A stretch of DNA of 23,634 bases from IMG/VR virus record IMGVR_UViG_3300031992_000010; one strand, given 5' to 3'. The stretch comes from a virus (taxonomy: Duplodnaviria; Heunggongvirae; Uroviricota; Caudoviricetes). The position numbers and the translations under genes are program-made. Below, one piece after another: positions 4,840 to 21,457 of the stretch; position 1 is the first letter of the stretch, and each line of letters starts with the position of its first letter. The notes below the pieces were generated by a model that did not search any database, was not told where the DNA came from, and saw only the letters and a program-made list of their open reading frames with translations.

Positions 4840-5850
4840 ATGGGTAAAAATAGTGATATTAAGGTCAAGGACCTAACAAGGGGCTATGATGAAAACTTCA
4901 AGCCAACACAGGAGTATTTGGATTCAATGCCGGATTTACAAAACGGGGAATATATGGATATTCCAATCGAATTTGTAGGTATTCATAATTTTCACATCCC
5001 TATTCGCATACGTGAAAAGAATGGCGGTACACAGGAGGTTATGGCATCAATTACCGGTGAGGTTAGTTTAGGTGCCCAAAAACGAGGTATTAATATGTCA
5101 CGTATCATTCGTACCTTTTATAAATCAAAGGATGACATATTCGATATCAAAAACCTTGAAAAGGTATTGACCGACTATAAAAAGGATCTCGACACCTTCG
5201 ATGCACATATCCTTATGAATTTCAAGTATCGAATTTGGCAGGATGCATTGAGATCCACAAAAATTGTGGAACACGACGAATACAACCACACCATTAAGGA
5301 GGAGGTACCCGAAGGTGGATGGCAATACTATAATATCACCTTCGATGTAAATATGGATAAAATCGGTGAGGTGAAAAGAATTCTTTGGGTGGATTTTGTA
5401 TATAGTTCCGCATGCCCCTGTTCAACCGAATTATCCCTCCACGCGGCATTAAACCGTGGTGTATATGGCATTCCACACTCACAACGTAGTATTGCCCGCC
5501 TTGGATTGGATTTTAATATTCCGGAGGATGGTAACATGTTGTGGATTGAGGATGTTGTTGATATGTGCCGTGAGGCGTTGACGACCGAGACGTTGGTATT
5601 TTGTAAACGTCAGGATGAACAGGCATTTGCAGAGAAAAATGGTGCCCAGCCAAAGTTTGTGGAGGATGCGATAAGATTTTTGGGTCATAGATTAAATGAA
5701 TGTCCATTAATTGTGGATTACAAAATCATTTGTTCCCATCAGGAATCATTACATTCACACGATGCGGTTGCGGTAATGACCAAGGGTAAAAAGGATAGTT
5801 GTTTTAATCACCACGTAAGTTTGGGTGAGTGGCAATCAATGATGGTTTAG
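4840..5850 (+). CDS. folE2: GTP cyclohydrolase I type B
   Basis: PDLQN, VGI, RGINMSR, YSSACPCS, PHSQRS, KRQDE, KFVED, ESLHSHDA. Confidence 0.93.
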   Translation: MGKNSDIKVKDLTRGYDENFKPTQEYLDSMPDLQNGEYMDIPIEFVGIHNFHIPIRIREKNGGTQEVMASITGEVSLGAQKRGINMSRIIRTFYKSKDDIFDIKNLEKVLTDYKKDLDTFDAHILMNFKYRIWQDALRSTKIVEHDEYNHTIKEEVPEGGWQYYNITFDVNMDKIGEVKRILWVDFVYSSACPCSTELSLHAALNRGVYGIPHSQRSIARLGLDFNIPEDGNMLWIEDVVDMCREALTTETLVFCKRQDEQAFAEKNGAQPKFVEDAIRFLGHRLNECPLIVDYKIICSHQESLHSHDAVAVMTKGKKDSCFNHHVSLGEWQSMMV

Positions 5851-5925: not shown

Positions 5926-7518
5926 ATGGAAACCCCGGATATAAATGAATTAAATAATAGTATACATATCAAAAACGAGGAGTTTTGTAAAACAAAATAT
6001 CCTGAATTTACCGGGTTTTTGGAAAATAAATATCCAAACATTACACATATTGAACGTTTATATATGTATATACATCCATCCTGTCAACCAAAATGTGAAA
6101 CTTGTGGGGGGAGTGTTAAATTTATAAATTTCAATAAAGGATATCGGAAATTTTGTTGTCCGGGTTGTGTATCGAAAAATTCCAATATAAAGAACAAAAA
6201 AATCAATACCTGTCGTTTAAATTATGGTGTGGATAATCCATCATATTCAAATGATATATTGATTAAAAAGCAAACAACAATGCTTGAACGATATGGTGTT
6301 GATAATACGTCAAAATTAAAGGATAACCGAAAAAAGGCAAAACAAACGATGTTGGAACGATATGGGGTTGATAATGTAATGAAACTAAATTCGGTAAAGG
6401 AAAAAATCAAATCAAACAATAATAAAAAATACGGTGTTGATTGGCCTTTATCGTTGGATGTGGTTAAGGAAAAATCAAATATTACATATATCCAAAAATA
6501 TGGGGGGAGAGGTAATGCGTCCGATATTATAAGACAAAAAATGAAAAATACCTGTTATGAAAAATATGGGGATTTAAATTTTAGTAATCGGGAAAAGGCA
6601 AAACAAACGATGCTGGAACGATATGGTGAATTGGCCTACCATCACTATTGTATTCCGAAAGATACAAATATTGAAATTTTTGTACAAAATATATTGGATA
6701 AATATAATATAAATTATATAAAAAATAACAGGTCCATTCTCAAAGGTCGTGAATTGGATATATATATTCCTTCACATAAATTTGCAATTGAGATAAATGG
6801 ATGCCATTGGCATAGTGTAAAATTTAAACCAAAAAAATATCATTTTGAAAAATTCAAGGAATGTTTAAATGAGGATATACAACTTCTAACCATTTGGGAT
6901 GATCAAATCGTTGGAAATCCGAAATTGATTGAATCGATTATATTATCAAAACTTGGTATATATAATGAAAGAATATATGCAAGAAAATGTGATGTGCGAT
7001 ATGTTTCACCGGGTGATAGTTTAAAATTTTTATCGGAAAATCACATACAGGGGGGAGTGAATAGTAGTGTGCGTTTGGGTTTATATTGCAATGATGAACT
7101 CATAAGTATAATGACATTTGGAAAAAAACGTAAATCATTAAATCAAAAAGGACAGGATGGGGAGTGGGAATTGTATAGGTTTTGTAATAAAATAAATACA
7201 CAGGTTATTGGTGGTGCATCAAAATTATTAAAATATTTTATAAGAAACCATAAACCGGCATTGGTTGAATCCTTTTCAAGTAATGATATAAGTATGGGAA
7301 ATTTATATAAAACATTATCATTCAAAAAAAATGGTGAAAGTTTATCATATTGGTATGTTAAGGATTATAAAAGATACCATAGATTTAACTTTACAAAAAA
7401 ACGTTTGGTTGGGATGGGATTTGACCCATCAAAAACCGAACAACAAATTATGTCGGAAAATAGATATGAATGTATATATGATAGTGGGCAAACAAAGTGG
7501 ATTCTTGAATGTAAATAA
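5926..7518 (+). CDS. Hef-like homing endonuclease: Zn ribbon, YGxxN repeats, Vsr/DUF559-like PD-(D/E)xK domain and C-terminal GNAT/Mom-like domain
   Basis: CETC..FCCPGC; repeated ERYGVDN; ELDIYIPSHKFAIEINGCHWH; ELYRFC..VIGGASKLLKYF..IYDSGQ. Confidence 0.78.
   Translation: METPDINELNNSIHIKNEEFCKTKYPEFTGFLENKYPNITHIERLYMYIHPSCQPKCETCGGSVKFINFNKGYRKFCCPGCVSKNSNIKNKKINTCRLNYGVDNPSYSNDILIKKQTTMLERYGVDNTSKLKDNRKKAKQTMLERYGVDNVMKLNSVKEKIKSNNNKKYGVDWPLSLDVVKEKSNITYIQKYGGRGNASDIIRQKMKNTCYEKYGDLNFSNREKAKQTMLERYGELAYHHYCIPKDTNIEIFVQNILDKYNINYIKNNRSILKGRELDIYIPSHKFAIEINGCHWHSVKFKPKKYHFEKFKECLNEDIQLLTIWDDQIVGNPKLIESIILSKLGIYNERIYARKCDVRYVSPGDSLKFLSENHIQGGVNSSVRLGLYCNDELISIMTFGKKRKSLNQKGQDGEWELYRFCNKINTQVIGGASKLLKYFIRNHKPALVESFSSNDISMGNLYKTLSFKKNGESLSYWYVKDYKRYHRFNFTKKRLVGMGFDPSKTEQQIMSENRYECIYDSGQTKWILECK
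6332..6626 (+). repeat. 34-nt direct repeat (6332-6365 and 6593-6626, one mismatch) encoding KAKQTMLERYG
   Basis: aaaaggcaaaacaaacgatg(t/c)tggaacgatatgg occurs twice within the YGxxN repeat array. Confidence 0.85.
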
Positions 7519-8020: not shown

Positions 8021-8846
8021 ACTTGTTTTTGGACTTGGAGGGGGATTTGTATATTCCTGCGGTGGTAACGGTAAATGGAAGACGGTACTACCCAAACTAT
8101 TAAATACATTCGATAACTGTGTGCTTATATCCACCGTGGATATGTCGCAGGTGGCGGCGAAGGTAATATATGACACGGTAGGACAGGAACGACTTTATTT
8201 GGATAGTGGTGGTTTTACCTTATATAAGAAACAGGTAAAACTTGGAGCCGATAATCCGGAGTTCCACAAACTATGTGATAAAATGAAGGCCCGGTTTATG
8301 AAGATGTTATCGATAGCGAAATATAATGAGGTATTCGAACTCGATAACGAATATTTCCGCAAGGATCCGGATATGTTATCCCCCAAAAATTATTGCCGGG
8401 AGGAGGTAAAGGCCTTAACAGGTTCATACCCTACACCGGTATTTAAGATGCATCAGGGATTTGAATATTGGAAACGATTATGCGAAAGTGATTTATATCC
8501 ACGCCTTGCCATTGGTGGTTTGGCCCAAACACGTGAATGGAATACCCACAGGGATGAGTTGACGAAAATGATGAGATATGCGAGGGATTGTGGTAAAAAG
8601 GTCCACCTATTGGGGTGTCAAAATGTGGAAAGTTTCAAAATGGTCCAACCTGATACCGTGGATTATTCAATATTCCAATATGCAATCAATTTAGGCTTCG
8701 TCAATGAGGAACATCCGGAGTTAACAACCTACGCCGAAAAGAAACAACAATGTGTATTATATGCGTTGGCGAGGGCGAAATCCCGAAGTTTCCTATATGA
8801 TAATGATTGTAAAATTTTAAACGAAGGCGAGGACTTTAAGGAATAA
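8013..8846 (+). CDS. dpdA: TGT-fold DNA 7-deazaguanine transglycosylase (DpdA-like)
   Basis: LYLDSGGFT, ELD, PVFKMHQG, LAIGGL, VHLLG and TVDYS motifs of the TGT/DpdA fold; lies with queD, queE and folE2. Confidence 0.78.
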   Translation: MHKLVFGLGGGFVYSCGGNGKWKTVLPKLLNTFDNCVLISTVDMSQVAAKVIYDTVGQERLYLDSGGFTLYKKQVKLGADNPEFHKLCDKMKARFMKMLSIAKYNEVFELDNEYFRKDPDMLSPKNYCREEVKALTGSYPTPVFKMHQGFEYWKRLCESDLYPRLAIGGLAQTREWNTHRDELTKMMRYARDCGKKVHLLGCQNVESFKMVQPDTVDYSIFQYAINLGFVNEEHPELTTYAEKKQQCVLYALARAKSRSFLYDNDCKILNEGEDFKE

Positions 8847-8872
8847 TCACAAATAAAAAAAACAATATAAAC

Positions 8873-8906
8873 AAAGGTCCGGGATTAAATATTTCGGACC
8901 TTTTTT
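8873..8906 (+). terminator. Intrinsic terminator overlapping a promoter
   Basis: AAAGGTCCGGGAT...ATTTCGGACCTTTTTT. Confidence 0.75.
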
Positions 8907-8915
8907 GTATATTAA
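8884..8915 (+). promoter_or_regulatory. Putative promoter ATTAAA-N18-TATATTAA
   Basis: Consensus match. Confidence 0.65.
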
Positions 8916-8959
8916 TGTGTAATAATGTTCCGATTATTATTGTAAAAAAGGTTATTACA

Positions 8960-9163
8960 ATGAAAGGATTAAGTGATAAAATAAAGGAGGAATTTGAAGG
9001 TGGAAGTGGCAATGGAGGTACATTATACGCCACACCCGGTAATACGTTGGGAATGGGGAATCCATATGCCGACGCCGAAGGTGCATCCGAACCAATAACA
9101 CCAATTCAAAAACCTATCGCCAATAATGGAAAACGCAAAAAAAGAAGATTTCCAAAACAATGA
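8960..9163 (+). CDS. 67-aa protein carrying a copy of the major capsid N-terminal motif; putative minor or internal head protein
   Basis: MKGLSDKIKEE leader; YATPGNTLGMGNP versus MCP YATPLNTVGMGNP; basic tail KRKKRR; ATGA coupling to the next gene. Confidence 0.7.
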   Translation: MKGLSDKIKEEFEGGSGNGGTLYATPGNTLGMGNPYADAEGASEPITPIQKPIANNGKRKKRRFPKQ

Positions 9164-9774
9164 AAAAGGATATTAATATAATGTACGTCCACGGGCTGAA
9201 CTCCGATGGAAATTCAATAACCGGGAAAACCATGGAACGGGTATTACAATCACAATTCCCGGATATGAATATAAATGTTTTTCGACCAACGTTTCCTAAA
9301 ACCGGCCCGGAGGCATTAAACGTTCTCAATAAGGAAATACGTAAAAATAAAATCAATATTGTTATTGGCACCTCACTTGGTGGTTTTGTAACACTAAACG
9401 CCCACGGACCTTTCCGTATTGTGGTAAACCCGGCAATGCATCCATCCAAGACATTACTTAAATTGGGCGAACCGGAGGAGGTTGCGGCCACATATAAGGA
9501 TATCGAGGAAAAATTATATTCGAACATTGATTTTGAGGATAAGGCCGCCACAATAGGCTGGTTTGCCGACAATGACAAGGTGGTTCAAAATGGAGGGGAA
9601 TTTAAAAAATTATATGGCCGGAAAAGGGAATTTCACGGCGAACATCGTATGGATGAACGTGCAATTAAGGACATAATTGTAAGATCAATACGGGAATGGA
9701 TTACCATGTGTGAAAATGGTACATTCGAGGATTTGACTTATTTTTCCAATATAAATAATTTATTATTAGATTAA
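9160..9774 (+). CDS. YqiA/UPF0227-like alpha/beta hydrolase (esterase)
   Basis: YVHGLNS, GTSLGG nucleophile elbow, VVNPA, DKVV, GEHR. Confidence 0.85.
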   Translation: MKKDINIMYVHGLNSDGNSITGKTMERVLQSQFPDMNINVFRPTFPKTGPEALNVLNKEIRKNKINIVIGTSLGGFVTLNAHGPFRIVVNPAMHPSKTLLKLGEPEEVAATYKDIEEKLYSNIDFEDKAATIGWFADNDKVVQNGGEFKKLYGRKREFHGEHRMDERAIKDIIVRSIREWITMCENGTFEDLTYFSNINNLLLD

Positions 9775-9786
9775 AAATTGCAAGGT

Positions 9787-10104
9787 ATGAAGAATATAAC
9801 GGAGGCCATGAATAAATCGGACCGCGAACTTCCGATGGGAAATAGTTGGATTGAGGTATCGAAAGAGGCATTTCTAAAAATAATAAATGATTGTAATATA
9901 AGTAATGGTGATTTATACTGTGGTATTCGCGCCATTTCCGAATTGGAGAAATTTACAATTTTTAAGGATTTTGTTGATAAGGATGTAAAAAGAATATTAA
10001 AATTATCGTTGGAGGAAACCAATAATCCTACGGTATGGATTAATGTATACAAATCCGGTGAATCGTTCAAATATAATGTACAAATTGTAAAAATGGTTTT
10101 TTAA
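9787..10104 (+). CDS. Hypothetical protein with MKNITEA leader
   Basis: ORF tightly packed in the operon; ATG at 9787. Confidence 0.65.
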   Translation: MKNITEAMNKSDRELPMGNSWIEVSKEAFLKIINDCNISNGDLYCGIRAISELEKFTIFKDFVDKDVKRILKLSLEETNNPTVWINVYKSGESFKYNVQIVKMVF

Positions 10105-10105
10105 T

Positions 10106-10681
10106 GTGAAACATCTATTTGATAAAATAAATGAGGCAATAAAACCATTATCATCACCAACGGCACTCGATGAGGGAAGTGATGGTGTTATTTTTGATTT
10201 GGGAAACGGAACGGTTAAAAAAATTCTTTTTCCTCCTTCCGATAATATGAGAAAAAAGGCCATCGATGTGGTGGAAAAATGGATTAATGTATGTAAAAAA
10301 GGTAAAAAATTGACGACAATCCCTAATATTGAGGTTGACAAATGGGATGAAGGGGAAATGTCATATATTATGCCAAAATACAAACTCAATACACCAAAAT
10401 GTAAATTAATCAACGATGCGGTGTGGAAGTTCCTTATTATGAATGATATTGAAAATGACCCGAAAAAACTTCAGGAACATAAATTAAAAATGGAGGCCGT
10501 TTATGGAGAGGCCAAAACAAAATATGCAATGAAGTGGTGCGAGGACTTTATTAAGGACTACCGCCTGATTACCGGCAATGAAAAGGGCCATATGTCGGAT
10601 GACATAAGACTCCCAAATCTCGGTGAGGATAAAAGAGGTAATGTTTGGTGTTTTGATTGGTATGACCCATATTGTGATTAA
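10106..10681 (+). CDS. Protein kinase-like fold protein
   Basis: Gly-rich loop LDEGSDGVIF, VKK lysine, YIMPK hinge, catalytic DIRLPN, CFD metal-binding motif. Confidence 0.7.
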   Translation: MKHLFDKINEAIKPLSSPTALDEGSDGVIFDLGNGTVKKILFPPSDNMRKKAIDVVEKWINVCKKGKKLTTIPNIEVDKWDEGEMSYIMPKYKLNTPKCKLINDAVWKFLIMNDIENDPKKLQEHKLKMEAVYGEAKTKYAMKWCEDFIKDYRLITGNEKGHMSDDIRLPNLGEDKRGNVWCFDWYDPYCD

Positions 10682-10695
10682 AAAAAATATTATAA

Positions 10696-11265
10696 ATGAA
10701 ACACCTGCATACAATTATAACGGAACAAATGATTTGCGAGGCGTTTGTCACCCTGTGGAAAAAGGATGGCGACGAGAATAGGATGCTCGAGTTGGAGGAT
10801 GTTTGTTGGCCAATGATGAAGGATGCGTATGCGTATCTCGTTACGAAGGAATGCCCAACAGGGATACTTAATGCAAATTCCTGGAAGGACCTCGTTGATG
10901 AGGCTGATATGATTAAGGTTGGAAAGGCCGGTGGTAGGATTGTTGCCTGTCAATTATATAAGATTAAAGGTGGCAATCGTAAGGCCTTTGTTGGATGCTG
11001 CGACGGTTCGGCCGATGGTAAGCGTATATTCACCATGATATTCAAGGAGGATCTCAAGGTGGCCGGAAGAAACGGTTATATTGAGGTTAGTGGAAAGGCC
11101 GAACATTGGTTGATTGATAAGTTGGGGTTCAAGGAATTTTGCATTCCGGTTGATAGGGTTGAAATGATATTGGGCAAGGAAATCATACCCGGTGCGGATG
11201 GATATCACTACCAGCGTATGATCGGGGGTAAAATGTACGAAAAAATAATGTTGGGAAATATATAA
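10696..11265 (+). CDS. Conserved phage protein, possibly GNAT-like, with a capsid-targeting-like leader
   Basis: MKHLHTIITEQMICEA leader; W..MKDAY, GRIVACQLYK, CDGSADGK, IEVSGKAEH pattern. Confidence 0.6.
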   Translation: MKHLHTIITEQMICEAFVTLWKKDGDENRMLELEDVCWPMMKDAYAYLVTKECPTGILNANSWKDLVDEADMIKVGKAGGRIVACQLYKIKGGNRKAFVGCCDGSADGKRIFTMIFKEDLKVAGRNGYIEVSGKAEHWLIDKLGFKEFCIPVDRVEMILGKEIIPGADGYHYQRMIGGKMYEKIMLGNI

Positions 11266-11269
11266 ATCC

Positions 11270-11301
11270 ATTAAATTTTTCCTATATATTTCATATATTA
11301 A
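11270..11301 (+). promoter_or_regulatory. Putative promoter ATTAAA-N18-TATATTAA
   Basis: Consensus match upstream of the ORF at 11320. Confidence 0.7.
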
Positions 11302-11319
11302 TCCATACGATACAAAAAT

Positions 11320-11577
11320 ATGAAACAGGAAAAAATTACAACAAAAAGTAACCTCGTATATTGGAGGATGTTGGAATTGACGGAAACCCATAAGTCATTC
11401 CTTGTCCAACACAAGGTGAAATTAAAAAATATATATTCCAAAAATAACGTATATTGGGTACTCCAAAAACACAATGCCAATATGGATGATGGTGTATATA
11501 TTAATTGGCCGGGCGTGGTACCTACGGATGTGGTCCCACTCATAGCATCACACGGATTTGTACAATTTAAAAAATAA
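11320..11577 (+). CDS. Hypothetical protein (85 aa)
   Basis: Flanked by its own promoter and terminator. Confidence 0.7.
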   Translation: MKQEKITTKSNLVYWRMLELTETHKSFLVQHKVKLKNIYSKNNVYWVLQKHNANMDDGVYINWPGVVPTDVVPLIASHGFVQFKK

Positions 11578-11601
11578 ATTTCATATCCTTTTATTTACTG
11601 T

Positions 11602-11634
11602 GGGGTATCCCTTAAAAAAGGGAACCCCTTTTTT
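11602..11634 (+). terminator. Intrinsic terminator
   Basis: GGGGTATCCCTT-AAA-AAGGGAACCCC-TTTTTT. Confidence 0.75.
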
Positions 11635-11658
11635 ATTTTTTAATAAAACCTTATAGTT

Positions 11659-11826
11659 ATGTTTACAATTATTGTCATTGCAATCTTAATGTGTTTATTT
11701 GTAAGTGGGACGGTATCAATGTTTTTCGATCAATATGACCGCGGGAAATTTGACAAAATTCCCGGTACAATAATAATGTCCGCCGTTTCAATTTTCCTAA
11801 TTATGGAATTTATTTTATTATTATAA
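11659..11826 (+). CDS. 55-aa membrane protein with two predicted TM helices (below the ORF-track cutoff)
   Basis: MFTIIVIAILMCLFVSGTVSMFF-DQYDRGKFDK-IPGTIIMSAVSIFLIMEFILLL; fills the intergenic gap. Confidence 0.6.
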   Translation: MFTIIVIAILMCLFVSGTVSMFFDQYDRGKFDKIPGTIIMSAVSIFLIMEFILLL

Positions 11827-11838
11827 AAAAATTTTTGT

Positions 11839-13347
11839 ATGAGGCATTTAAACGAATGTATGAGAATATTAAATTCCGTGGCAATCAATGAGGCGGTATC
11901 CAACGCCGATTTTGAAAAGGCACGGGCACTATGCCGTAAGTTTTTTACAAAATATGGTATTGGTGTAATGACCGACATTAATAATATTTCCGTTGATGGA
12001 AAACATTATTATAGTTCGTTTGCATATTGTATGTCCACAAACCTGGGATGTGCATTATTGTGGGCACAAACCGATAAATCATCCGAATTGGATGGAATTG
12101 TTTTCTATGACGATATTACAAAGGTGTTATTTGGAGCCGATGAGGGTGAAACCGCAAAATCGGAATGTGGTATGTATACCAATGGCATTTCGTTAACAAA
12201 ACTTATTCCTTTGATTAAGGATATGTTAACAGGTAAACTTTCGATGGACAAAAAGACGTTGGAAAAATCATTGGAAGGATACCAAATTACGGAGGATTTT
12301 GAGACCGAAATGGGGGAGTTGATTAATGAGGATATTGAGGCACTCCGTAAGAAACGTAATAATTTAAGTGTAAAAATAAATAATGCCAAAAAGGCCGGAA
12401 AGGATTTTACCGCATTGCAAAAGGAATATGATGATATTCGTTCCCAAATCAATAGTATGATGGTAAGCGGCTCACAAAAGGTTTCATATAACACCGACCC
12501 GGAGGTTGATAAGTTGGAACAACAATTTGAGGAACGTGTCACCCCGGAGGAAAGATTTGCCGATATGGACGCATACGTAAGAATGGTATGTAATGGCGTT
12601 CAACCTTCGTTGGTTGTTTGCGGTGCACCGGGTGTTGGTAAATCATATAGAATCCTAAAACAGGTTGAAAAACGTCATACATTTGGTGATGATTACTATT
12701 TGATTAAAGGTAAATGTACTGCGCAAAAATTCTTTCAAATCCTATTTGAATACCGTGAGGAGGGTGATATCATCGTTTGTGATGATGCCGACGATATTAT
12801 CCGTGACGATACAAGTATCAACCTTATCAAGGCCGCAACGGATTCGAGTGAAAAACGTCTTGTAACATATGGTACCACTATGGCACCACCTGCACCAATG
12901 GATTTGGTTGAGTTACACCCTGAATGGCCGTGGAACCGTATTGAAAGAAACGGTCGTGAGTTTGTAACATATCCAACCACATTTGAATTTAAGGGATCGA
13001 TAATTATTATCTCCAATATGCGTGCCGGTATGATTGATACCGCGATCCGTAACCGTGCATTCGTTTGTGACCTGGACTTTACAATCGACGAGGTATTGAG
13101 TATATTACGTGGATTGATTCCTGCCATTATGCCGGGACGTCTTGGTAGTGAGGCAAAAATGAAGGCATTTGATTTTCTACAATCTTTGGCCGACGAGGGT
13201 AATTCAAATATGGAAATATCAATACGTTCATTTATTACGTGTGCCAAAATTTATGAGGACCTTCCACCTTCGGAGGAAAAGGCGGCCGAAAGACGTATCA
13301 AGGAGCAAATGAGAAATCAATTTGCCCGTGGTGGTAAAAAATATTAA
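11839..13347 (+). CDS. AAA+ ATPase with an unknown N-terminal domain and a coiled-coil linker
   Basis: Walker A GAPGVGKS, Walker B IIVCDDAD, sensor IISN, arginine finger AIRNRA, ISIRS. Confidence 0.85.
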   Translation: MRHLNECMRILNSVAINEAVSNADFEKARALCRKFFTKYGIGVMTDINNISVDGKHYYSSFAYCMSTNLGCALLWAQTDKSSELDGIVFYDDITKVLFGADEGETAKSECGMYTNGISLTKLIPLIKDMLTGKLSMDKKTLEKSLEGYQITEDFETEMGELINEDIEALRKKRNNLSVKINNAKKAGKDFTALQKEYDDIRSQINSMMVSGSQKVSYNTDPEVDKLEQQFEERVTPEERFADMDAYVRMVCNGVQPSLVVCGAPGVGKSYRILKQVEKRHTFGDDYYLIKGKCTAQKFFQILFEYREEGDIIVCDDADDIIRDDTSINLIKAATDSSEKRLVTYGTTMAPPAPMDLVELHPEWPWNRIERNGREFVTYPTTFEFKGSIIIISNMRAGMIDTAIRNRAFVCDLDFTIDEVLSILRGLIPAIMPGRLGSEAKMKAFDFLQSLADEGNSNMEISIRSFITCAKIYEDLPPSEEKAAERRIKEQMRNQFARGGKKY

Positions 13348-13367
13348 TAATTATATTAATAAATTTC

Positions 13368-13399
13368 AAAAGGAGTTGGATTTTTCAACTCCTTTTTTT
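13368..13399 (+). terminator. Intrinsic terminator
   Basis: AAAAGGAGTTGGA-TTT-TTCAACTCCTTTTTTT. Confidence 0.8.
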
Positions 13400-13411
13400 A
13401 TTATATAAATA
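13398..13411 (+). promoter_or_regulatory. Putative late promoter (TTATTATATAAATA, contains the T4-type TATAAATA)
   Basis: Lies 10 nt upstream of the ATG at 13422; similar TTATT(A/T)T...AAA elements precede other late-type genes. Confidence 0.4.
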
Positions 13412-13421
13412 AAATCTTTAA

Positions 13422-14645
13422 ATGAGACTTTCCGAATTTATTAAGGAATCATTATTAAACGAAGGTGGACAATCCGGTCACCTAAAACATATAATCGATT
13501 ATAGTGAGTTAACATTCGACCAAATAAAGGGCATACTTTATTCCCTATTTAATGGTAAAATACAGGATATCACCGAGAAAATAGATGGAACCAATATACA
13601 GGCCTCGATGAATGATAATGATGAGGTTGTATTTGTAAGAAACAAAGGGGATTTGAATAGCGAACGTGGTGGTATGTTCGTACAGGATATGGTTACCAAG
13701 TGGTCCGGAAATCCAAAGGTACAGCAAACATTCGTTGAAAGTGGGAAAATTTTGGAGGAGTTATTCAAAAAGATAGGAAAACGATTCTTTAACCCGGATT
13801 CCAATACAAGAATATTCGCCAACTGTGAGTGTATGATTGAAGGTACCACCAACATTATGCCATACATTTCCTCGAAGGTAAACGTCCACGATTTGTGGGT
13901 ATATGAAAAAACACCATCCGGATGGGAATTGAAGGAAACCACCAAAAACGGCCTGAAAAAATTACAGGACGCTATGGAAGGAATGGATAACGTCCAAATA
14001 ACCCCGAATGTAATCGTTGACGTAACCGAAAAGGGTCAGGATGCACTGAAAAAATATATGAAGGATATAAATGACATATATAGGGCGGCCGGATTAAAAA
14101 CATCCTCAACAATAGAGGAATATAAGGAGGTTAGGTTTGCCGAATATATGGGCAAAAACGAATCGTGGTGGGAATCCAACCCGGAAGGCAAACATATTCT
14201 TTTTGAACGATTTATAAATCAGGATAAATCCGTGAATATCAGGGACATAAAGAAAATGTATCCGGATAATGTGGATGATATTACCCGGATTGATAAGAAT
14301 GGATACAAGGCCATTTATAAATTTGTTATGAATGACCTGGATACATTATTCCTCAAAATAGGTAATACAATAATAGATATGTGTTATGGTTTCATTAATT
14401 CCGGCGGTGAGGCGAAGGTTATTGCCGAGTTGGAGAAAAATCTTGAGGATGTAACGGCCGAAATAGAGGCAAACGGAAGTGAAAAGGCAAAAACAAAACT
14501 TGCCCAACAACTTGCCCGCCTTGCACAATTGGATAAATTGAATGCCACCGAAGGTATTGTATTTAGATATAAGGGAAGAATAATGAAATGTACGGGGGCG
14601 TTTGCACCTCTTAATCAGGCACTTGGAACAAGATTTGAAAAATAA
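13422..14645 (+). CDS. RNA/DNA ligase-superfamily nucleotidyltransferase (DUF6267-like)
   Basis: Motif I TEKIDG, motif III NCE, motif IIIa VHD, motif IV EGIVFR, motif V MKCTG. Confidence 0.65.
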   Translation: MRLSEFIKESLLNEGGQSGHLKHIIDYSELTFDQIKGILYSLFNGKIQDITEKIDGTNIQASMNDNDEVVFVRNKGDLNSERGGMFVQDMVTKWSGNPKVQQTFVESGKILEELFKKIGKRFFNPDSNTRIFANCECMIEGTTNIMPYISSKVNVHDLWVYEKTPSGWELKETTKNGLKKLQDAMEGMDNVQITPNVIVDVTEKGQDALKKYMKDINDIYRAAGLKTSSTIEEYKEVRFAEYMGKNESWWESNPEGKHILFERFINQDKSVNIRDIKKMYPDNVDDITRIDKNGYKAIYKFVMNDLDTLFLKIGNTIIDMCYGFINSGGEAKVIAELEKNLEDVTAEIEANGSEKAKTKLAQQLARLAQLDKLNATEGIVFRYKGRIMKCTGAFAPLNQALGTRFEK

Positions 14646-14655
14646 TTATATTAGG

Positions 14656-16047
14656 ATGAAGTTAAAGGAATTTATAATTGAAAAATTGATAATGGAATCC
14701 TCATTTTCAGTGGAGGATTGGACCAAAACAAACCATACGTACGGTCAGGATGTAATCGATAAATTGATTGGCGGCTCCCCGGTACGTTTGGGTGATAAAG
14801 GTACCGACGGTGAATACACCGCCACACCGGAGGAAATTGAAAAATTAAAAGGTCTTAAATGTGACTATTCAAAGGATACATTAAAACAATTTAATGATAT
14901 TTTCGATCGAAAAAATATGTGGCAATCCATTTTTAAAGGTGATTTTTCAGGTTATTCCACAGGAAATACCGAAGGTCAACAATATGAGTCGTTGGTTTGT
15001 TATTTATTCAATGACGACAATGCCGATGTGGATCTTTGGTTGCAGGTCAATGGTTTAACCGGCGATGAGTCGTGGATTGAATCCTGCCGTAAAACGGTGG
15101 CAACCATGAATAAATATGCGGATTTCAACCATAAGTGGACCAATGATGATTATGTGGCATGTCACGTTGATGGTAACGATTTTAAATTGGGTGCCGAATA
15201 TGAATTTGCCCGTGAATTGACCTCCATATTTTCCGGCAAGCCTGCAATGAGACAATTATTTGGAAAAAATATAGAAAACATTTATTCCGGAAAAGGTAAG
15301 GATACCTGGAACAAGGCCGATATCGTATTGATAAACAAACGTTGTAAAAACCTTTTAAAGGAAATGAAACAGGTTGTTTCCGATGGTGAATCATTAAATA
15401 ATGAATTATTAAAACAATTAACCGAAGGAAATATTATACCAATATCATTAAAAAAAATTCCAGGCAATCAAAAGGAGGGCCACATTGAAAAGGTAAATAT
15501 CGATGACGCGGAGGATATGAATGATGAGTTGGAAAAATATATGGACGGTGATATTTATATTTCATTGCCTAAAACCTTGGAAAACAACCGTTATCAAGGT
15601 ACAATCGATATGCTTTGCTCCCACCTGGATAGTAAATACAAAATCAGTTTCCTAAAGGCAACCTCCGGCAAAAATAACCTAAACGTGGAAACCACCATAG
15701 TCGGGTCGGTATCACGTGCCGGTAAGGCGGTATCAAATATCAAAACCGCATTAAAATTAGGAGCCGGAAATGATTATTTCGTTATAATGGATGATAATGA
15801 CGATGCAATTAAGGAATTAAGGAATTATGGATTTGAAATCCAAATGAAAAAGAATAATAACCTCGATAAGGCGGAGGAGTTTAGTCCGACATTTTGTGAA
15901 CGTCCTTGTATTGCCGGATTATTGGGTTTATTAAAACAATATGAAAAGGTTAAACACCCGGAGAAAAAGGATTTTTGTCAGGATTTTGCCGAATTTGTAT
16001 ATATGTGTTCGGTAAAAAGTTCGGGAGCATTTTATAAACTATCATAA
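14656..16047 (+). CDS. Putative PD-(D/E)xK restriction-endonuclease-fold protein
   Basis: QQYES helix, WNKADIVL, IPISLKK. Start reassigned to ATG 14656 (MKLKEFIIE). Confidence 0.55.
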   Translation: MKLKEFIIEKLIMESSFSVEDWTKTNHTYGQDVIDKLIGGSPVRLGDKGTDGEYTATPEEIEKLKGLKCDYSKDTLKQFNDIFDRKNMWQSIFKGDFSGYSTGNTEGQQYESLVCYLFNDDNADVDLWLQVNGLTGDESWIESCRKTVATMNKYADFNHKWTNDDYVACHVDGNDFKLGAEYEFARELTSIFSGKPAMRQLFGKNIENIYSGKGKDTWNKADIVLINKRCKNLLKEMKQVVSDGESLNNELLKQLTEGNIIPISLKKIPGNQKEGHIEKVNIDDAEDMNDELEKYMDGDIYISLPKTLENNRYQGTIDMLCSHLDSKYKISFLKATSGKNNLNVETTIVGSVSRAGKAVSNIKTALKLGAGNDYFVIMDDNDDAIKELRNYGFEIQMKKNNNLDKAEEFSPTFCERPCIAGLLGLLKQYEKVKHPEKKDFCQDFAEFVYMCSVKSSGAFYKLS

Positions 16048-16064
16048 AAATAAGGATACGATAA

Positions 16065-16937
16065 ATGGAAAATGTAAATATATTAATGGGTCGGTTCCAA
16101 CCAATAACATTGGGCCATATAAAATGTGCGGAGACGGCCTGGAAGGAAAATGGTGTAAAAACAATCCTATTGGTTGTTGAAACCACGAAGGAGGATGCCA
16201 AACATCCATTTGCCACAAGTATGTTATTACCTACATACAAAAAACTGGATAAGGAATTTAAATTTATGGCCGGGGTTGTTGTTGTAAAATCCGCCGATAT
16301 AGTTAAGAACGTGGAGATATGCCGGGACAATGGATTTGAACCGGTGTCGTGGTCGTGCGGTACGGATAGAATCGATGCCTACCAAAAAATGATTTCAAAA
16401 TATGGTCCACAAATAGGCCTTACCGATGATTTTAAGGTGATTGAAATCAAACGTGGCGATGATGATATTTCGGCAACACAGGTACGCAATGCCATATTAA
16501 AGGATGACAAAAACACATTCGAAAAATTGACACCAAAAACAATACATTCCCTGTATTCCAAATTAAAGGTAAATGTGGATAAATATTGTTCCATTAAGGA
16601 GGGAAAACTTTCATTAAAGGAATTTATATTGGAACGTATGGGTGAACTTTCGGTGGAAAAAATGTTCAAAACATACCATTCAAATATATCCTTACACATA
16701 TTAAAACAGGGCAAAAAACCTGCGGTTGTGGATAAACTTATGGATGCCATCGACGGTTGTTATAATGATACCTGTATATCCAATAATAGAATATACTGGT
16801 TTTTTGATGATATGAATGAAAGTGATGATGTGTGGGTTAAATTCCAACGAATCCTATCAAAAAAACCAATCAAGGATTTAACCGATCGACAGGTAATATC
16901 GGACGATTCCGTTGAATTGGTATATGCGGTTAAATAA
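16065..16937 (+). CDS. Cytidylyltransferase-like (HxGH family) nucleotidyltransferase with a C-terminal extension
   Basis: MGRFQPITLGH, HPF, CGTDR, ISATQVRNAI. Confidence 0.85.
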   Translation: MENVNILMGRFQPITLGHIKCAETAWKENGVKTILLVVETTKEDAKHPFATSMLLPTYKKLDKEFKFMAGVVVVKSADIVKNVEICRDNGFEPVSWSCGTDRIDAYQKMISKYGPQIGLTDDFKVIEIKRGDDDISATQVRNAILKDDKNTFEKLTPKTIHSLYSKLKVNVDKYCSIKEGKLSLKEFILERMGELSVEKMFKTYHSNISLHILKQGKKPAVVDKLMDAIDGCYNDTCISNNRIYWFFDDMNESDDVWVKFQRILSKKPIKDLTDRQVISDDSVELVYAVK

Positions 16938-16981
16938 AATTTATTCAATAAATTATTATATATAAAAAAAATAATTAAGAT

Positions 16982-17551
16982 ATGCCATTACCACATATAG
17001 AAAATTCGGAGGTTGGTATCAATAAGATGGAACCTCTATACAAGTCCCTATTTGAGGTGACTTTTACACTTCCAAAACCATTGGAGGAAAAGTTTGGTGC
17101 CGATCTTGCACTTCTAACCTCGCAGGTAACTAAAATCGGAGGATTGGAGGTAGCGAAAGGTGTTGAGGCCGGTACGGTACAAAAATTTATGGGTACAACA
17201 CGTTCATTCCTTAACTCAAAAATGGATGACACGTCGTTTGAAATTACGGTTACATTCAACCTCAACCTTCGTAACGGAACGGACAACTTCGTTTATAAAT
17301 TATTGAAGGCCTGGAAGGATTTGGGTTATAATCTTGAAACCGGTGAAACCGCATTGAAGGTCGACTATTGTGCCGATTGGTTAAAATGCCAGGTAGGAAA
17401 CCGTGCCGGTGATATATACCGTGAAATTATTATGAAGGATGTATTCATTTCCGGAGGTTTGGAAGGTTTGGGTGATTATGACTATGAAAATGGTTCGGAT
17501 ATCCAATCGGTTGATGTAAAATTCAAATCGGATTGGGCGAAGGAATATTAA
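16982..17551 (+). CDS. Tail tube protein (gp19-like)
   Basis: EPLYKSLFEVTF, ITVTFNLN, LKAWKDLGYN..TG..KVDY, and VKFKSDW at the C-terminus. Confidence 0.78.
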   Translation: MPLPHIENSEVGINKMEPLYKSLFEVTFTLPKPLEEKFGADLALLTSQVTKIGGLEVAKGVEAGTVQKFMGTTRSFLNSKMDDTSFEITVTFNLNLRNGTDNFVYKLLKAWKDLGYNLETGETALKVDYCADWLKCQVGNRAGDIYREIIMKDVFISGGLEGLGDYDYENGSDIQSVDVKFKSDWAKEY

Positions 17552-17573
17552 TGGTACCCAAATACCTATTATT

Positions 17574-17605
17574 AAAAGGATTGAATGTTTATTCAATCCT
17601 TTTTT
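17574..17605 (+). terminator. Intrinsic terminator
   Basis: AAAAGGATTGAAT-GTTT-ATTCAATCCTTTTTT perfect stem. Confidence 0.85.
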
Positions 17606-17632
17606 ATTTTATATAAAAATACATTATATATA

Positions 17633-17833
17633 ATGCCTGCAAAATCAAAATCACAACAACGCCTATTCGGAATGGCCCTCGCCGTTCGTAGAGGTGAATT
17701 AAAACGTGGGGAGGTAAATGATGAGGTCCTTAATATAGTCGATTCCGATATGACGGATAAGGAAATAGAGGATTTCGCCTCAACATCACATAAAGGTTTG
17801 AAGGAACACCTACTCGAATCCCTAAATCATTGA
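17633..17833 (+). CDS. DUF3008-family small protein
   Basis: MPAKSKSQQRLFGMALAVRRGE...DSDMTDKEIEDFAST.HKGL pattern; start reassigned to ATG 17633. Confidence 0.75.
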   Translation: MPAKSKSQQRLFGMALAVRRGELKRGEVNDEVLNIVDSDMTDKEIEDFASTSHKGLKEHLLESLNH

Positions 17834-17913: not shown

Positions 17914-19692
17914 ATGATTACTGAAACTTCACAAAACAATTTGGTCAGCATATTGAAGGAGGATCTTCACGTAACTGACCCTTACAAATTGAAATGGATG
18001 AGTCAATATGCACAAATCCACGAAGCAAGACAGGACAAAGGTTACGGTAGATTGTTAACGGAAGGTTTACAACCATACGCTGACAACGTATCGAAAAGCA
18101 TCTACGCAACTCCATTGAACACCGTAGGTATGGGTAACCCTATGGCTCCACTTGGTGTTCCAGGTCCTGATGGTTTTAACGCAAATGGCGGAAATGGAAC
18201 AGGCATTGGTAACACAGGTGCGGATTTCCATAATCCAAATTACCAAACAGGTAGTGGTGATATCCCTATGTCTACATTACCAATGGCATTGGAAGTAGCC
18301 GCTATGACAATCGGTTTGGAATTGGTTCCTATCGTTCCTGCAACTGGCCCTTGGCATATGTTGACTTGGATGGATACTCCATACGCCGGTGGTAAACTTG
18401 GAAAAATCAACGAAACTTCATTCGATGGTAAAGGTCCGGGTAGCGAAAACAAACCTATTTACATCACTGTTAATGCCGACTTCACATTTGGTTCTCCAAG
18501 TGAAAAGAAATTCATCCAAAAATATGACGAGGTAGTTGTAGAGGGTGAAGGTGGAACATTGAATGGTAAATTTATGGGATGGAACCGTTACAATGCCGAC
18601 ATTATTATCAAGGTTGAGGATTGCGGTGATGAGGAAACTTCAATCAGCGATGTATTCTCACAGGAGGCTGAAGTTACAATCAACTTCAAGGGTGGATCAA
18701 TCACTTCGGCAAAGGCAAAAATGCGTCCTGATCTTGTAGGTTCATATGGTAACCACCAACAAGGTTTCTCTAACTTCTTCGAGGATAGCGAGGATCCAAT
18801 GACAAGAGCACAAAACGAAACAGGTGTAGGTAATACAATCGGTGTTCGTATGTTCTCAAAATGGATCCAAATGGGTTCCTATGAAGTAACAGGTGCGGTA
18901 ACCCGCCAACAATTACAGGATATGCCTTTATATGGTGTTGATGTTGTAGGTAAGGTATTGGAGGCAATGCAAAACCAAATTTCACAGGAAATCAACAACC
19001 GTATCCTTGATAGAGTACGTAAATTGGGTGTAACCAACGCCGTTATTCAAAAGAAATACCAAAACGTTGACTTGAACTTGACTTTCGATAGCACCGAAAC
19101 AGGTTACAAGGATCTTACTGAATTTGTTGGTTCGGATAAATTCGTTGGTATTGATAACCAAAACAAGGCTGAAGGCTGGGGACGTGTAAAGGTAGCCGTG
19201 GATAATACAAACTATGAAAACTATATGACTCACCAACGTCGTATTTCATCACGTATTTTGGCTGCTAAAAACTTGATCGCCGTTACATCACGTCGTGGTG
19301 CAGGTAACTTCGTGGTAACAAACTCGCAAGTTGTAACTGCATTGCAGGATAACGCTCAATTCGTTCCTTGTCCAATGACTAACACATTCGTACAGGATAA
19401 CTCTAAATCAATTTACTTCGCAGGTTCATATGCCGGTACAAATGTTTACTGTGATCCTTACCAATTGTGGGATGACACACGTGTAACAGTTGGACGTAAA
19501 GGTACTGAAAACGAACCGGGTGTAATCTTTATGCCTTACATCCTTTGCGATACAATCCAAATTACCGCAGAAGGAACTATGGCTCCAAAATTGTTGTGTA
19601 ACTCACGTTTCGCATTACCTGATATCGGTTGGGCTCCTGAACAATCATACTTCACATTCCTAATCGATGGTGATGGCGCAGCAATAATCTAA
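17914..19692 (+). CDS. Major capsid protein (T4 gp23-like)
   Basis: LPMALEVAAMTIGLELVP, ISQEINNRI, RRGAGNFVV, GTNVYCDPY, VGRKG..PGVIFMPY, PK..SRFA; codon usage typical of a highly expressed gene; poly-A leader. Confidence 0.92.
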   Translation: MITETSQNNLVSILKEDLHVTDPYKLKWMSQYAQIHEARQDKGYGRLLTEGLQPYADNVSKSIYATPLNTVGMGNPMAPLGVPGPDGFNANGGNGTGIGNTGADFHNPNYQTGSGDIPMSTLPMALEVAAMTIGLELVPIVPATGPWHMLTWMDTPYAGGKLGKINETSFDGKGPGSENKPIYITVNADFTFGSPSEKKFIQKYDEVVVEGEGGTLNGKFMGWNRYNADIIIKVEDCGDEETSISDVFSQEAEVTINFKGGSITSAKAKMRPDLVGSYGNHQQGFSNFFEDSEDPMTRAQNETGVGNTIGVRMFSKWIQMGSYEVTGAVTRQQLQDMPLYGVDVVGKVLEAMQNQISQEINNRILDRVRKLGVTNAVIQKKYQNVDLNLTFDSTETGYKDLTEFVGSDKFVGIDNQNKAEGWGRVKVAVDNTNYENYMTHQRRISSRILAAKNLIAVTSRRGAGNFVVTNSQVVTALQDNAQFVPCPMTNTFVQDNSKSIYFAGSYAGTNVYCDPYQLWDDTRVTVGRKGTENEPGVIFMPYILCDTIQITAEGTMAPKLLCNSRFALPDIGWAPEQSYFTFLIDGDGAAII

Positions 19693-19804: not shown

Positions 19805-21457
19805 ATGACAATAGATTATTCGAATATAATGGAGGCGGAGGAAATTAAAAACCTACCGGGCTACCATATAACGGAGGCATCCAAAAAGGACAACGAGAAT
19901 GAAAAAGAGGTGGAGGACAATATTGAGGATACCGGGAAAAAACAAAAGGAAAAGGCACAAAATAAGGATGTTTATGATGTTATTTATGCAAAGAATGATT
20001 ATACCAATATTTTCAAACATATAATCATTTTCACAAACAACCGCGATCCAAAGGAAAACAAAACATTGAAAAATCTTTACGATGCGGTGGATGAATTGAA
20101 AAAACATAAATGTCCGATAATCCCCGAATTACACGTATTCATAGCCGCGCAGGTAGTTGCCGACGAGGATGAAAAGGAAATTACAATTTCGGATGATAAA
20201 GGTGAATTTGTTATTAAGGAACAATCAAACCTTGATACATTAATATTCTCACGTCTTGGTGTTCAAGGTGAGGATGAATGTGAGCACATAGTAAACATTT
20301 TGGTCGACCGCGGTTTCCTTGTATTGAATCCCGTAAAATATAGTGAATTGGCATCCAATAAATATGAAACGGCCGTCCTATTGCAAAAAGGTGAAATACC
20401 ACAACCAAACTTTTGCCTTATGACAAAGGATGTTCTTTACGATGAGAAACTTTACCTTGATGCCATGAAGGAGGTTTATCCCGAATTTACCGGCGATGGC
20501 GATAAGGATGAAAAACTCCAATTTGTCATCAAGATTTTGGACGGACATGGTGGTACCGGTGTTGCCTTGATTGATGGCAAACGTATATTGGCAATATTCC
20601 AAATGATATTTGCAATCGACCCGGAACGTCAAATAATAGTTCAAAAGAAGGAGGAGGCCGATGGCGGTGATATCCGCGTCCACGTATTGACATTAAGAAA
20701 CAAACAGGTAATCCTTGCCGCCATGAAACGTATAAAAATTGCATCGGATTTCCGTTCAAACGTATCATTGGGCGCGGAGGCCGAACCTGTTAATTTGACG
20801 CCTGAACAGGAACAAATAGCATTGAAGGCCGCCAAAATATCAAAACTACCATGGTGTGCGGTGGATATAATGCCACTTGTAAAGGGGTCGAATAAGGAAT
20901 TGGGCGATAACGTTGTATTGGAACTAAATGCCTCACCGGGGACGAATGGTATAACGGACGTGATGAAGGAAAACTTCGTCAATATATTATTAAGCGAATT
21001 AAATGATCCGGGGGAATTTTACCTCCAAAATAAGGTGGCCGGATATGTGGAGGCCGCACAGGTCGTATTTGAGGACGGTGATGAACCTATATCGGTGCTT
21101 GCCAAACTTGATACCGGCAACGGTGCGAAGGCATCCCACATTGAGGTAGGTAAATATGAGGTAAATGATAAGAAGGTCTCATTCGAAATTAATGGAAAGA
21201 AATATTCCTTCGACATTGTGGATGAATCCCACGCAAAAACAGGGGATGAGGAACACAACCGCCCCGTAATCGAAATCAAGGAACTTACCGTTGGTTTACG
21301 TAAGGTACAAAACGTCCGTATGGCAATTGTCGAGGTCCGCGACAAATCAACCAATATGCTTATCAATCGTGACGTTCTTGCCAAGTTGGGTTATGTAATT
21401 TCATCAAACGAAACCCACCTATTGACGGAGGAAATGGAAAAGGTTAAAATAGTATAA
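19805..21457 (+). CDS. RimK-like ATP-grasp ligase fused to a retropepsin-like (RimB-type) protease domain
   Basis: ASNKY, VIKILDGHGGTGV, GGDIRV, FRSNVSLG, AVDI, LELNASPG; C-terminal AKLDTGNGA..H, RPV, MLINRD. Confidence 0.88.
   Translation: MTIDYSNIMEAEEIKNLPGYHITEASKKDNENEKEVEDNIEDTGKKQKEKAQNKDVYDVIYAKNDYTNIFKHIIIFTNNRDPKENKTLKNLYDAVDELKKHKCPIIPELHVFIAAQVVADEDEKEITISDDKGEFVIKEQSNLDTLIFSRLGVQGEDECEHIVNILVDRGFLVLNPVKYSELASNKYETAVLLQKGEIPQPNFCLMTKDVLYDEKLYLDAMKEVYPEFTGDGDKDEKLQFVIKILDGHGGTGVALIDGKRILAIFQMIFAIDPERQIIVQKKEEADGGDIRVHVLTLRNKQVILAAMKRIKIASDFRSNVSLGAEAEPVNLTPEQEQIALKAAKISKLPWCAVDIMPLVKGSNKELGDNVVLELNASPGTNGITDVMKENFVNILLSELNDPGEFYLQNKVAGYVEAAQVVFEDGDEPISVLAKLDTGNGAKASHIEVGKYEVNDKKVSFEINGKKYSFDIVDESHAKTGDEEHNRPVIEIKELTVGLRKVQNVRMAIVEVRDKSTNMLINRDVLAKLGYVISSNETHLLTEEMEKVKIV

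Follow-up and report, generated by a model that had tools for sequence, protein, structure and literature searches.

Can a short sequence at the start of unrelated phage proteins mark them for loading into the capsid? The question is raised by a stretch of 23,634 nucleotides from a virus of the Caudoviricetes (IMG/VR record IMGVR_UViG_3300031992_000010; the whole stretch of 23.6 kb is called the window here). At least six unrelated proteins of the window, a small basic protein, a kinase-like protein, a GNAT-like protein, a P-loop ATPase, a ligase-like protein and a protein of 463 residues, carry at their N-terminus a similar short sequence that ends with a glutamate and is called the tag here. 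An earlier note on this DNA had explained these N-termini as leaders of the T4 type that target proteins to the capsid and are removed by the prohead protease. We followed up this proposal by comparing the window with related phages. The tag probably represents a T4-type system, capsid targeting followed by cleavage by the protease, to which many enzyme-like proteins have been recruited in this group of phages.

A similar short sequence at the N-termini of unrelated proteins

The window is A/T-rich (about 37% G+C) and nearly all its genes are on the plus strand. Judged from its sequence, it belongs to the genome, about 210 kb in size, of an uncultured jumbo phage that is related through its capsid protein to phages of Bacteroidota hosts. 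The genome size was estimated because one of the window proteins is also found on a contig of 210,240 bp, and a Bacteroidota host was assumed because the relatives of the capsid protein infect such hosts. For the counts, the IMG/VR contig G001 was used as a stand-in genome. It has 63,985 bp (CheckV completeness 31%) and contains the whole window, with 99% identity over the region of the finding. Open reading frames were called on G001, which gave 60 genes.

All N-termini quoted in the earlier note were recovered in the window where it had located them (Table 1). For the kinase-like protein, the position and the sequence of the leader were correct except for the first residue, which is V and not M, the gene having a GTG start. 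The common form of the tag is M-[KRED]-x-[LI]-x-x-x-I-x-E, as in MKHLFDKINE, and a variant of 9 residues reads M-x-L-x-E-F-I-x-E, as in MRLSEFIKE or MKLKEFIIE. In the larger proteins, the tag is often followed by a spacer and by a second site just ahead of the conserved domain (LLNE/GG, LIME/S, MICE/A and AINE/A, where the slash marks the predicted cut). The AF2 models of the 463-residue and the ligase-like protein placed the tag in a short helix of low confidence, residues 3-11, that precedes the folded core. The bodies of the tagged proteins differ in their predicted fold or family.

Beyond the window, six further genes of G001 are tagged, with starts such as MKHLSENILFE, MEHLYNFITE, METLKNKIME, MDSLKNLIME, MRHINETILNE and MKHINESILQE, and the total on G001 is 13-15 of the 60 genes. 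The ATP-grasp protein encoded just 3' of the capsid gene is a possible further member, its start being a weak match to a loose pattern. As had been noted before, the Que enzymes (QueD/QueE/FolE-like) and the S1-like, exonuclease-like and phosphoesterase proteins have no tag. It was also absent from the esterase at 9160, the helicase, the tail sheath, the tube-like proteins, the RuvC-like protein and the product of the DpdA-like gene, all encoded in the window or on G001.

The regular expression of the earlier note was run on G001 against shuffled controls, and the motif was enriched at gene starts. It matched 7 of the 60 genes at the first start codon and 10 when a Met within 25 codons was allowed. 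Shuffling of residues 2-13, which preserves the K/N/I/E-rich composition of the gene starts, led to an expectation of 0.28 matches, and a count of 7 was not reached in any of 5000 shuffles. At gene starts, the motif is about 25 times commoner than in the shuffles of those N-termini, and the result was unchanged when the N-terminal residues were pooled and redistributed. Elsewhere on the G001 proteins, the motif was found at 0.22% of the internal positions and at none of the 380 internal Met positions. A similarity by chance, or by the ordinary composition of N-termini, might be suspected since MK starts are common in bacteria and phages and a bare [LI]xE occurs at about 1% per position. This explanation is already refuted by the shuffles, which never reached the observed count, and by the pattern being kept in hundreds of homologues; we give it practically no probability.

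Table 1. Positions of the tagged proteins and related features. Coordinates are those of the window unless another contig is named; a slash marks a predicted cut.
Feature	Coordinates	Strand	Tag, leader or site	Remarks
67-residue basic protein	8960..9163	+	MKGLSDKIKE/E (8960-8989)	Gly-rich stretch, then YATPGNTLGMGNP; KRKKRR tail
105-residue protein	9787..10104	+	MKNITE/A (9787-9804)	No family found; weakest member
191-residue kinase-like protein	10106..10681	+	VKHLFDKINE/A (10106-10135)	GTG start
189-residue GNAT-like protein	10696..11265	+	MKHLHTIITE/QMICE/A; MKHLHTIITEQMICE/A at 10696-10740	
502-residue putative P-loop/AAA-type ATPase	11839..13347	+	Two-part leader MRHLNECMRILNSVAINE/A (11839-11892)	
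407-residue ligase-like putative nucleotidyltransferase	13422..14645	+	MRLSEFIKESLLNE/GGQSGH (MRLSEFIKESLLNE/G at 13422-13463)	
463-residue conserved protein	14656..16047	+	MKLKEFIIEKLIME/S (14656-14697)	Unknown fold
290-residue HxGH nucleotidyltransferase	16065..16937	+	Internal LSLKEFILE/R (16608-16634)	No N-terminal tag
66-residue DUF3008-type protein	17633..17833	+	C-terminal GLKEHLLE/SLNH, then stop codon (17795-17818)	
Major capsid protein, T4 gp23 type	17914..19692	+	Four [LI]xE sites in residues 1-50 (17914-18063)	
550-residue ATP-grasp (RimK-like) protein	19805..21457	+	MTIDYSNIME/A, then ITE/A and acidic linker	NCBIfam RimK match
Prohead protease, T4 gp21 family, 467 residues	G001 37643-39046 (= L005:17643-19046)	-		S77
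TTATATAAAWA sites	5898, 11821, 13401, 16956, 17609	+		16-25 nt upstream of genes at 5926, 11839, 13422, 16982, 17633
Tag-like genes of Lak-A1 (L094, MK250016.1)	8509-9672, 33442-34491		MNKLIKRLIE/SLFDD, MNKQIKQLLE/NLFDD	TAG read as Gln; look paralogous

Comparison with capsid targeting in T4 and phiKZ-like phages and with the tags of PAU

Such a mechanism has precedents in T4 and in phiKZ-like phages, whose propeptides are longer. The tag has the same spacing as the T4 capsid targeting sequence MKTYQEFIAE: positions 4 and 7/8 are hydrophobic, and the Glu stands at 9/10. According to suppressor analysis of the T4 tag, positions 4 and 7 chiefly serve targeting, and positions 8 and 10 serve processing (PMC9026906 section 2.6). 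As in T4, where IPI, IPII, IPIII and Alt are tagged, about ten residues are shared by otherwise unrelated proteins; one of those in T4, Alt, is an enzyme. The internal proteins of T4 are basic, as is the KRKKRR tail of the 67-residue protein. Also as in T4, a protease of the gp21 family occurs together with a gp23-type capsid protein whose propeptide has several [LI]xE sites. In contrast to T4, where a handful of genes are tagged, the tag is found here on 13-15 of the 60 genes of a 64-kb contig, the leader is often in two parts with a variable spacer and a second cut site, and copies of the tag are seen at the C-terminal end of a domain as well. The predicted cargo is mostly enzyme-like with 190-500 residues, unlike the small basic proteins of T4.

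In the phiKZ-like phages phiKZ, 201phi2-1 and SPN3US, many head-internal proteins including the virion RNA polymerase are loaded into the prohead and ejected into the host, and a gp21-related protease processes the ejection proteins at x-x-E motifs. Their propeptides mostly have 80-160 residues and the motif [S/A/G]-x-E, whereas the tags of the window are T4-like both in their length and in having a hydrophobic residue at P3.

The capsid protein of the window matched PHROG 28442 at E 8e-98 and also PHROG 138, 'major head protein'. The four sites that had been read from its N-terminal region before, ITE4, LKE16, IHE37 and LTE50, were confirmed, and LTE50/G is the likely cut for its maturation. 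On G001, an open reading frame for a predicted prohead protease was found. Its first 250 residues or so matched Peptidase_S77 (PF03420) with 35.2 bits, above the cut-off of 27, and PHROG 207, 'head maturation protease', was matched at E 1e-36. A sequence search with the protease against PDB gave rows at chance level only. The N-terminus of the protease itself has LFE and LNE sites. Its C-terminal half consists of an acidic linker rich in Asn, Asp and Glu followed by about five repeats of the type EKWVVEDYTPEI and resembles a scaffold, so that the open reading frame may encode a protease-scaffold fusion.

Among the GenBank phages, the closest matches of the capsid protein (30-34% identity) were to a 462-kb uncultured phage, the Lak megaphages of Prevotella, the Tenacibaculum phages pT24 and PTm1, the Chryseobacterium phage MA9V-1 and the phage PAU, whose host is in fact a Sphingobacterium (PMC3738902). 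PAU is a cultured relative. Its capsid protein is about 32% identical to that of the window, it has a capsid maturation protease of the T4 type, and it has a tag of 9 residues that ends with L-x-E. N-terminal sequencing of the PAU capsid protein has shown a mature form of 520 of the 585 residues (PMC5646251 Table 1). When we compared this length with the sequence, the cut fell after L63-M64-E65; the site itself is unpublished and the reading is ours. Since the cut falls after LME65, PAU appears to follow the L-x-E rule of T4.

The whole PAU genome was then read for tags. About 21 of its 293 open reading frames start with MK[TSG][LI]xx[LM][YFL]E, and most of them lie at 100-121 kb around the genes for the portal, the protease, the scaffold and the capsid protein. 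Among the tagged genes are gp152, annotated as the scaffold, and four of the five that carry the product name 'internal capsid protein' (gp142, gp154, gp199 and gp270, not gp70), which we take as good but second-hand evidence. Unlike those of the window, the tagged proteins of PAU are for the most part small proteins without a known function, and their genes are concentrated in the head module. The consensus is also different, being MKTLxxLYE in PAU and M[KR]HLxxxIxE or MxLxEFIxE here. Lak-A1 has two or three tag-like starts only. Literature searches found no description of such tags in PAU-like, Lak or Jug phages.

By this comparison, the tag would bind to the prohead core and bring its carrier protein into the assembling prohead. 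Cleavage behind the Glu by the prohead protease would then free the mature protein within the head, where the cargo would stay until it is ejected with the DNA, to act early on the host. We infer the removal of the tag by the protease indirectly, from the conserved [LI]xE/[ASG] just ahead of the conserved domain in most homologues of the 463-residue protein and the ATPase, and by analogy to T4 we infer that the tagged proteins are inside the virions and are ejected into the host. That the cargo is ejected and acts in host takeover has, in our judgement, about even odds, and roles in takeover or anti-defence would be speculation.

Conservation of the tag, its position and alternative explanations

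Relatives of the window in IMG/VR (lineages L009, L010 and L011) were reached only with a profile of the 463-residue family. The search with tblastn of the 463-residue protein against GenBank phages gave no match, and a search with the ligase-like protein alone gave no confirmed relative. The 463-residue family comprises 62 homologues with 24-98% identity on contigs of up to 319 kb. The leader expression matched 42 of the 62, and most begin with a leader of the type MK[STN]L..[YF][IL].E. The motif [LIFVMY]xE[ASG] was found within the first 36 residues in 49 of the 62, compared to 13% of the internal windows. It is mostly IFE/A or INE/A and stands immediately ahead of the start of the conserved domain. 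Through indels, the length of the leader varies between some 10 and 30 residues. In other phage lineages, distant homologues start with MA and have no leader. Therefore, the tag is an addition specific to this phage group.

Four other families gave a similar picture. For the ATPase, 54 of 56 full-length cluster representatives have [LIVFMY]xE[AGS] in the first 50 residues (25% of the internal windows), and 48 of the 56 open with an amphipathic M..[LF].[ED]F[ILV]. The orthologues of the ligase-like protein in L009, L010 and L011 have a leader of variable length that is followed by an invariant E/GG..GH. Two homologues of the kinase-like protein, P0064 (MKHLYNYIIE/N) and P0065 (MKSISKCINE/A), keep the tag ahead of the conserved GSDG domain, in P0065 with about 95 extra residues in between. 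Homologues of the GNAT-like protein with 70-75% identity keep M.HL...I.E and [IL]CE/A ahead of AFVTLWKK. In L009 and L011, neighbouring genes are tagged as well, in L011 twelve almost consecutive ones.

The earlier note had also pointed to an internal copy of the tag, LSLKEFILE, in the HxGH transferase and to a C-terminal copy in the DUF3008-type protein. Both are present, and the observation could be extended to orthologues. In the window, the catalytic domain of the transferase ends with KLSLKEFILE/R and about 100 more residues follow, whereas the orthologue of L011 ends with RISLKEFIIE/SLNI and that of L009 with CSLEDYIE/NNNMFDID. In none of the three is the transferase tagged at its N-terminus. 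Since the HxGH transferase has its tag at the end of the domain, the whole module of the ligase-like protein, the 463-residue protein and the transferase, which stand together in L009 and L011, is tagged. T4 Alt is also processed at its C-terminus (PMC9026906). It is conceivable, though we rate it as doubtful, that the trio, with a tag on each member, enters the head together and is injected as a kit for the repair and modification of RNA or nucleotides, alongside an injected kinase and acetyltransferase. With it, tRNAs that host anticodon nucleases have cleaved could be repaired, or a cofactor that has run low replenished, ahead of any phage transcription. If this were true, the tag would be functional at the N- as well as the C-terminus, and the tag of T4 is not known to be so.

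Taken together, the S77 protease, the L-x-E cut and the tags of PAU and the conservation in five families back the core of the original proposal, a capsid-targeting leader of the T4 type that is cleaved by the protease. Several points weigh against it. The leader at 9787 is weak, with merely six residues. The protease gene lies outside the window, on G001 about 9 kb past the window's end. In PAU, 'internal capsid protein' is a GenBank product name, and the basis of this annotation could not be verified. LR756500, the best match of the capsid protein, is nearly free of tags within 20 kb on either side of its capsid gene. The tagged fraction of 22-25% of the G001 genes is high compared to about 7% in PAU and a handful of genes in T4, and the tagged set includes ordinary-looking cytoplasmic enzymes. 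The mature part of the 463-residue family does not avoid the cut motif (78 observed, 45 expected). Finally, the 11 G001 tags with an Ile at P3 all use the codon ATA for it, compared to 33% genome-wide (P about 5e-6).

On G001, [LI]xE[ASG] occurred in the bodies of the tagged proteins 2 times (4.1 expected) and in those of the untagged proteins 32 times (22.9 expected). Because this trend is weak and the 463-residue family shows the opposite, the avoidance of the motif was not counted as support.

The high fraction of tagged genes and the missing motif avoidance would also fit if the tag were a signal for regulated degradation, or an amphipathic motif for docking or assembly in an intracellular complex other than the capsid, for example a factory for replication or RNA processing. 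The tagged proteins would then be late cytoplasmic enzymes that are never packaged, as the P-loop ATPase with its relatives in T4-like phages, a P-loop kinase of L011 and the ligase-like protein might suggest. We regard this as unlikely since in PAU the tagged genes cluster in the head module and include those of the scaffold and of annotated internal capsid proteins, and since the tag ends with the motif after which the published mature length puts the cut of the PAU capsid protein. In addition, the T4 tag is matched position by position.

The many [LI]xE[ASG] motifs in the bodies of the 463-residue family could alternatively indicate that the tagged proteins enter the prohead as a disposable core or scaffold and are degraded or expelled at maturation, so that no effectors are delivered. 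In T4, most core proteins (gp22, gp67 and gp68) are indeed cut up and leave the head, whereas Alt and the internal proteins, which are similarly tagged, stay in the head and are ejected (PMC9026906). The tagged proteins of the window have conserved and confidently folded enzyme-like domains, with a mean pLDDT of 86 in the 463-residue protein, unlike coiled-coil scaffolds. A purely disposable core is therefore improbable.

The preference for ATA at P3, which was also seen in L011 (6 of 10 tags, compared to 32%), hints at a constraint on the nucleotide level or at a shared descent of the tags; a translational pause is another possibility. Several L011 tags share the identical run TAT ATA AAT GAA, and the genes have A-rich leaders and no Shine-Dalgarno sites. 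These features would fit an explanation in which the shared N-termini are a portable, recombining 5' gene end or an A/T-rich start optimised for initiation, and the peptide has no role. However, shuffles that keep the composition do not give the motif, the codons for Leu4 and Glu differ synonymously between tags, and the amino-acid pattern is kept across lineages whose DNA differs. The tag is under constraint at the protein level. Its internal and C-terminal copies argue strongly against an effect on translation initiation, and we consider an explanation at the nucleotide level alone very improbable.

Predicted functions of the tagged proteins and their surroundings

The earlier note had named several of the tagged proteins as enzymes. 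These labels fared differently: those of the ATPase and the ligase-like protein have modest support, kinase and GNAT came from predicted structures only, and 'nuclease' was without support. The ATPase has a Walker A motif, GAPGVGKS, and matched PHROG 1250 at E 5e-35, with Pfam AAA_16 below the cut-off. Matches by tblastn were to ATPase genes of T4-like phages, for example nrdC.10 of CC31, over residues 210-500 or so. With this modest support, the label of a P-loop/AAA-type ATPase stands.

In the ligase-like protein, K53-x-D55-G56 and EGIVFRYKG are invariant in four orthologues. It scored 19.9 bits with Pfam RNA_ligase, below the cut-off of 27. The AF2 model was built from 4 sequences (pLDDT 73), and the top Foldseek rows were T4 Rnl1, T4 Rnl2 and TbREL1 with E >= 0.012, which is not significant. 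These results give modest support for a ligase-like nucleotidyltransferase. The HxGH transferase matched Pfam CTP_transf_like barely at the cut-off and weakly resembles NMN adenylyltransferases.

The label 'nuclease-like' of the 463-residue protein found no support in searches of Pfam, PDB sequences or folds. Its AF2 model, built from 39 sequences, is confident, and Foldseek gave nothing at E <= 0.001, while the best Z of VIA-align was 4.2. The invariant residues D222 and S264-x-K266 are not a canonical PD-(D/E)xK motif. Because the confident model had no credible fold match, the label was dropped. The PDB sequence searches with the ligase-like and the 463-residue protein gave rows at chance level only.

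For the kinase-like protein, no match was found in Pfam, NCBIfam or PDB sequences. Its ESM Atlas neighbours are Pkinase and APH clusters with TM 0.52-0.55, and an adjacent cluster has Phage_T7_kinase on 23% of its members. The kinase fold suggested by these structures is a lead only. The GNAT-like protein likewise had no match in Pfam, NCBIfam or PDB sequences. It matched GNAT clusters of the ESM Atlas with TM 0.53-0.56 by query and 0.61-0.68 by target in alignments that start at residues 10-15, and its predicted GNAT fold is also only a lead. A separate observation was an Atlas cluster of 386-residue proteins, all with UPF0227, that matches the GNAT-like structure at TM 0.67. The esterase of the window (9160-9774) and the GNAT-like domain may thus be fused in one protein elsewhere.

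The 67-residue protein belongs to no Pfam or PHROG family. Its YATPGNTLGMGNP nearly copies YATPLNTVGMGNP (18103-18141), which is located near the predicted mature N-terminus of the capsid protein, and the two are the sole motifs of this kind on G001. A related sequence, GDILGMG, is found at the mature N-terminus of the PAU capsid protein.

If the tag acts like that of T4, sequence alone is enough to list the proteins that an entire clade of uncultured jumbo phages packages and injects. The capsid proteins link this clade to Bacteroidota phages from the gut, the rumen and the sea. The predicted cargo is unusually rich in enzyme-like proteins, which points to host manipulation or counter-defence from the moment of injection. 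The particular value of the present case lies in the conserved three-enzyme module that appears tagged throughout, in the use of the tag at the C-terminal end and in the link to the cultured PAU. It provides a tag of 9-18 residues, predicted mature N-termini and, with PAU, a cultured relative that has the same kind of tag.

Upstream of the genes, the sequence TTATATAAAWA, which resembles the T4 late promoter TATAAATA, gave 27 matches with at most one mismatch, compared to 9.6 expected. The core TATAAA[AT]A is found 16-25 nt upstream of several tagged and some structural genes, yet also of some untagged genes. The occurrence of a motif like the T4 late promoter near tagged genes is suggestive only. 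Another upstream motif, TATATTAATATGTAAGTT, lies ahead of two G001 genes, those at 5118 and 36978, and a variant of it ahead of the gene at 58317; it may represent a second class of promoters. Outside the window, an array of 5.7 kb with 30 tRNA genes was found at G001 47321-52981 (= L006:7321-12981).

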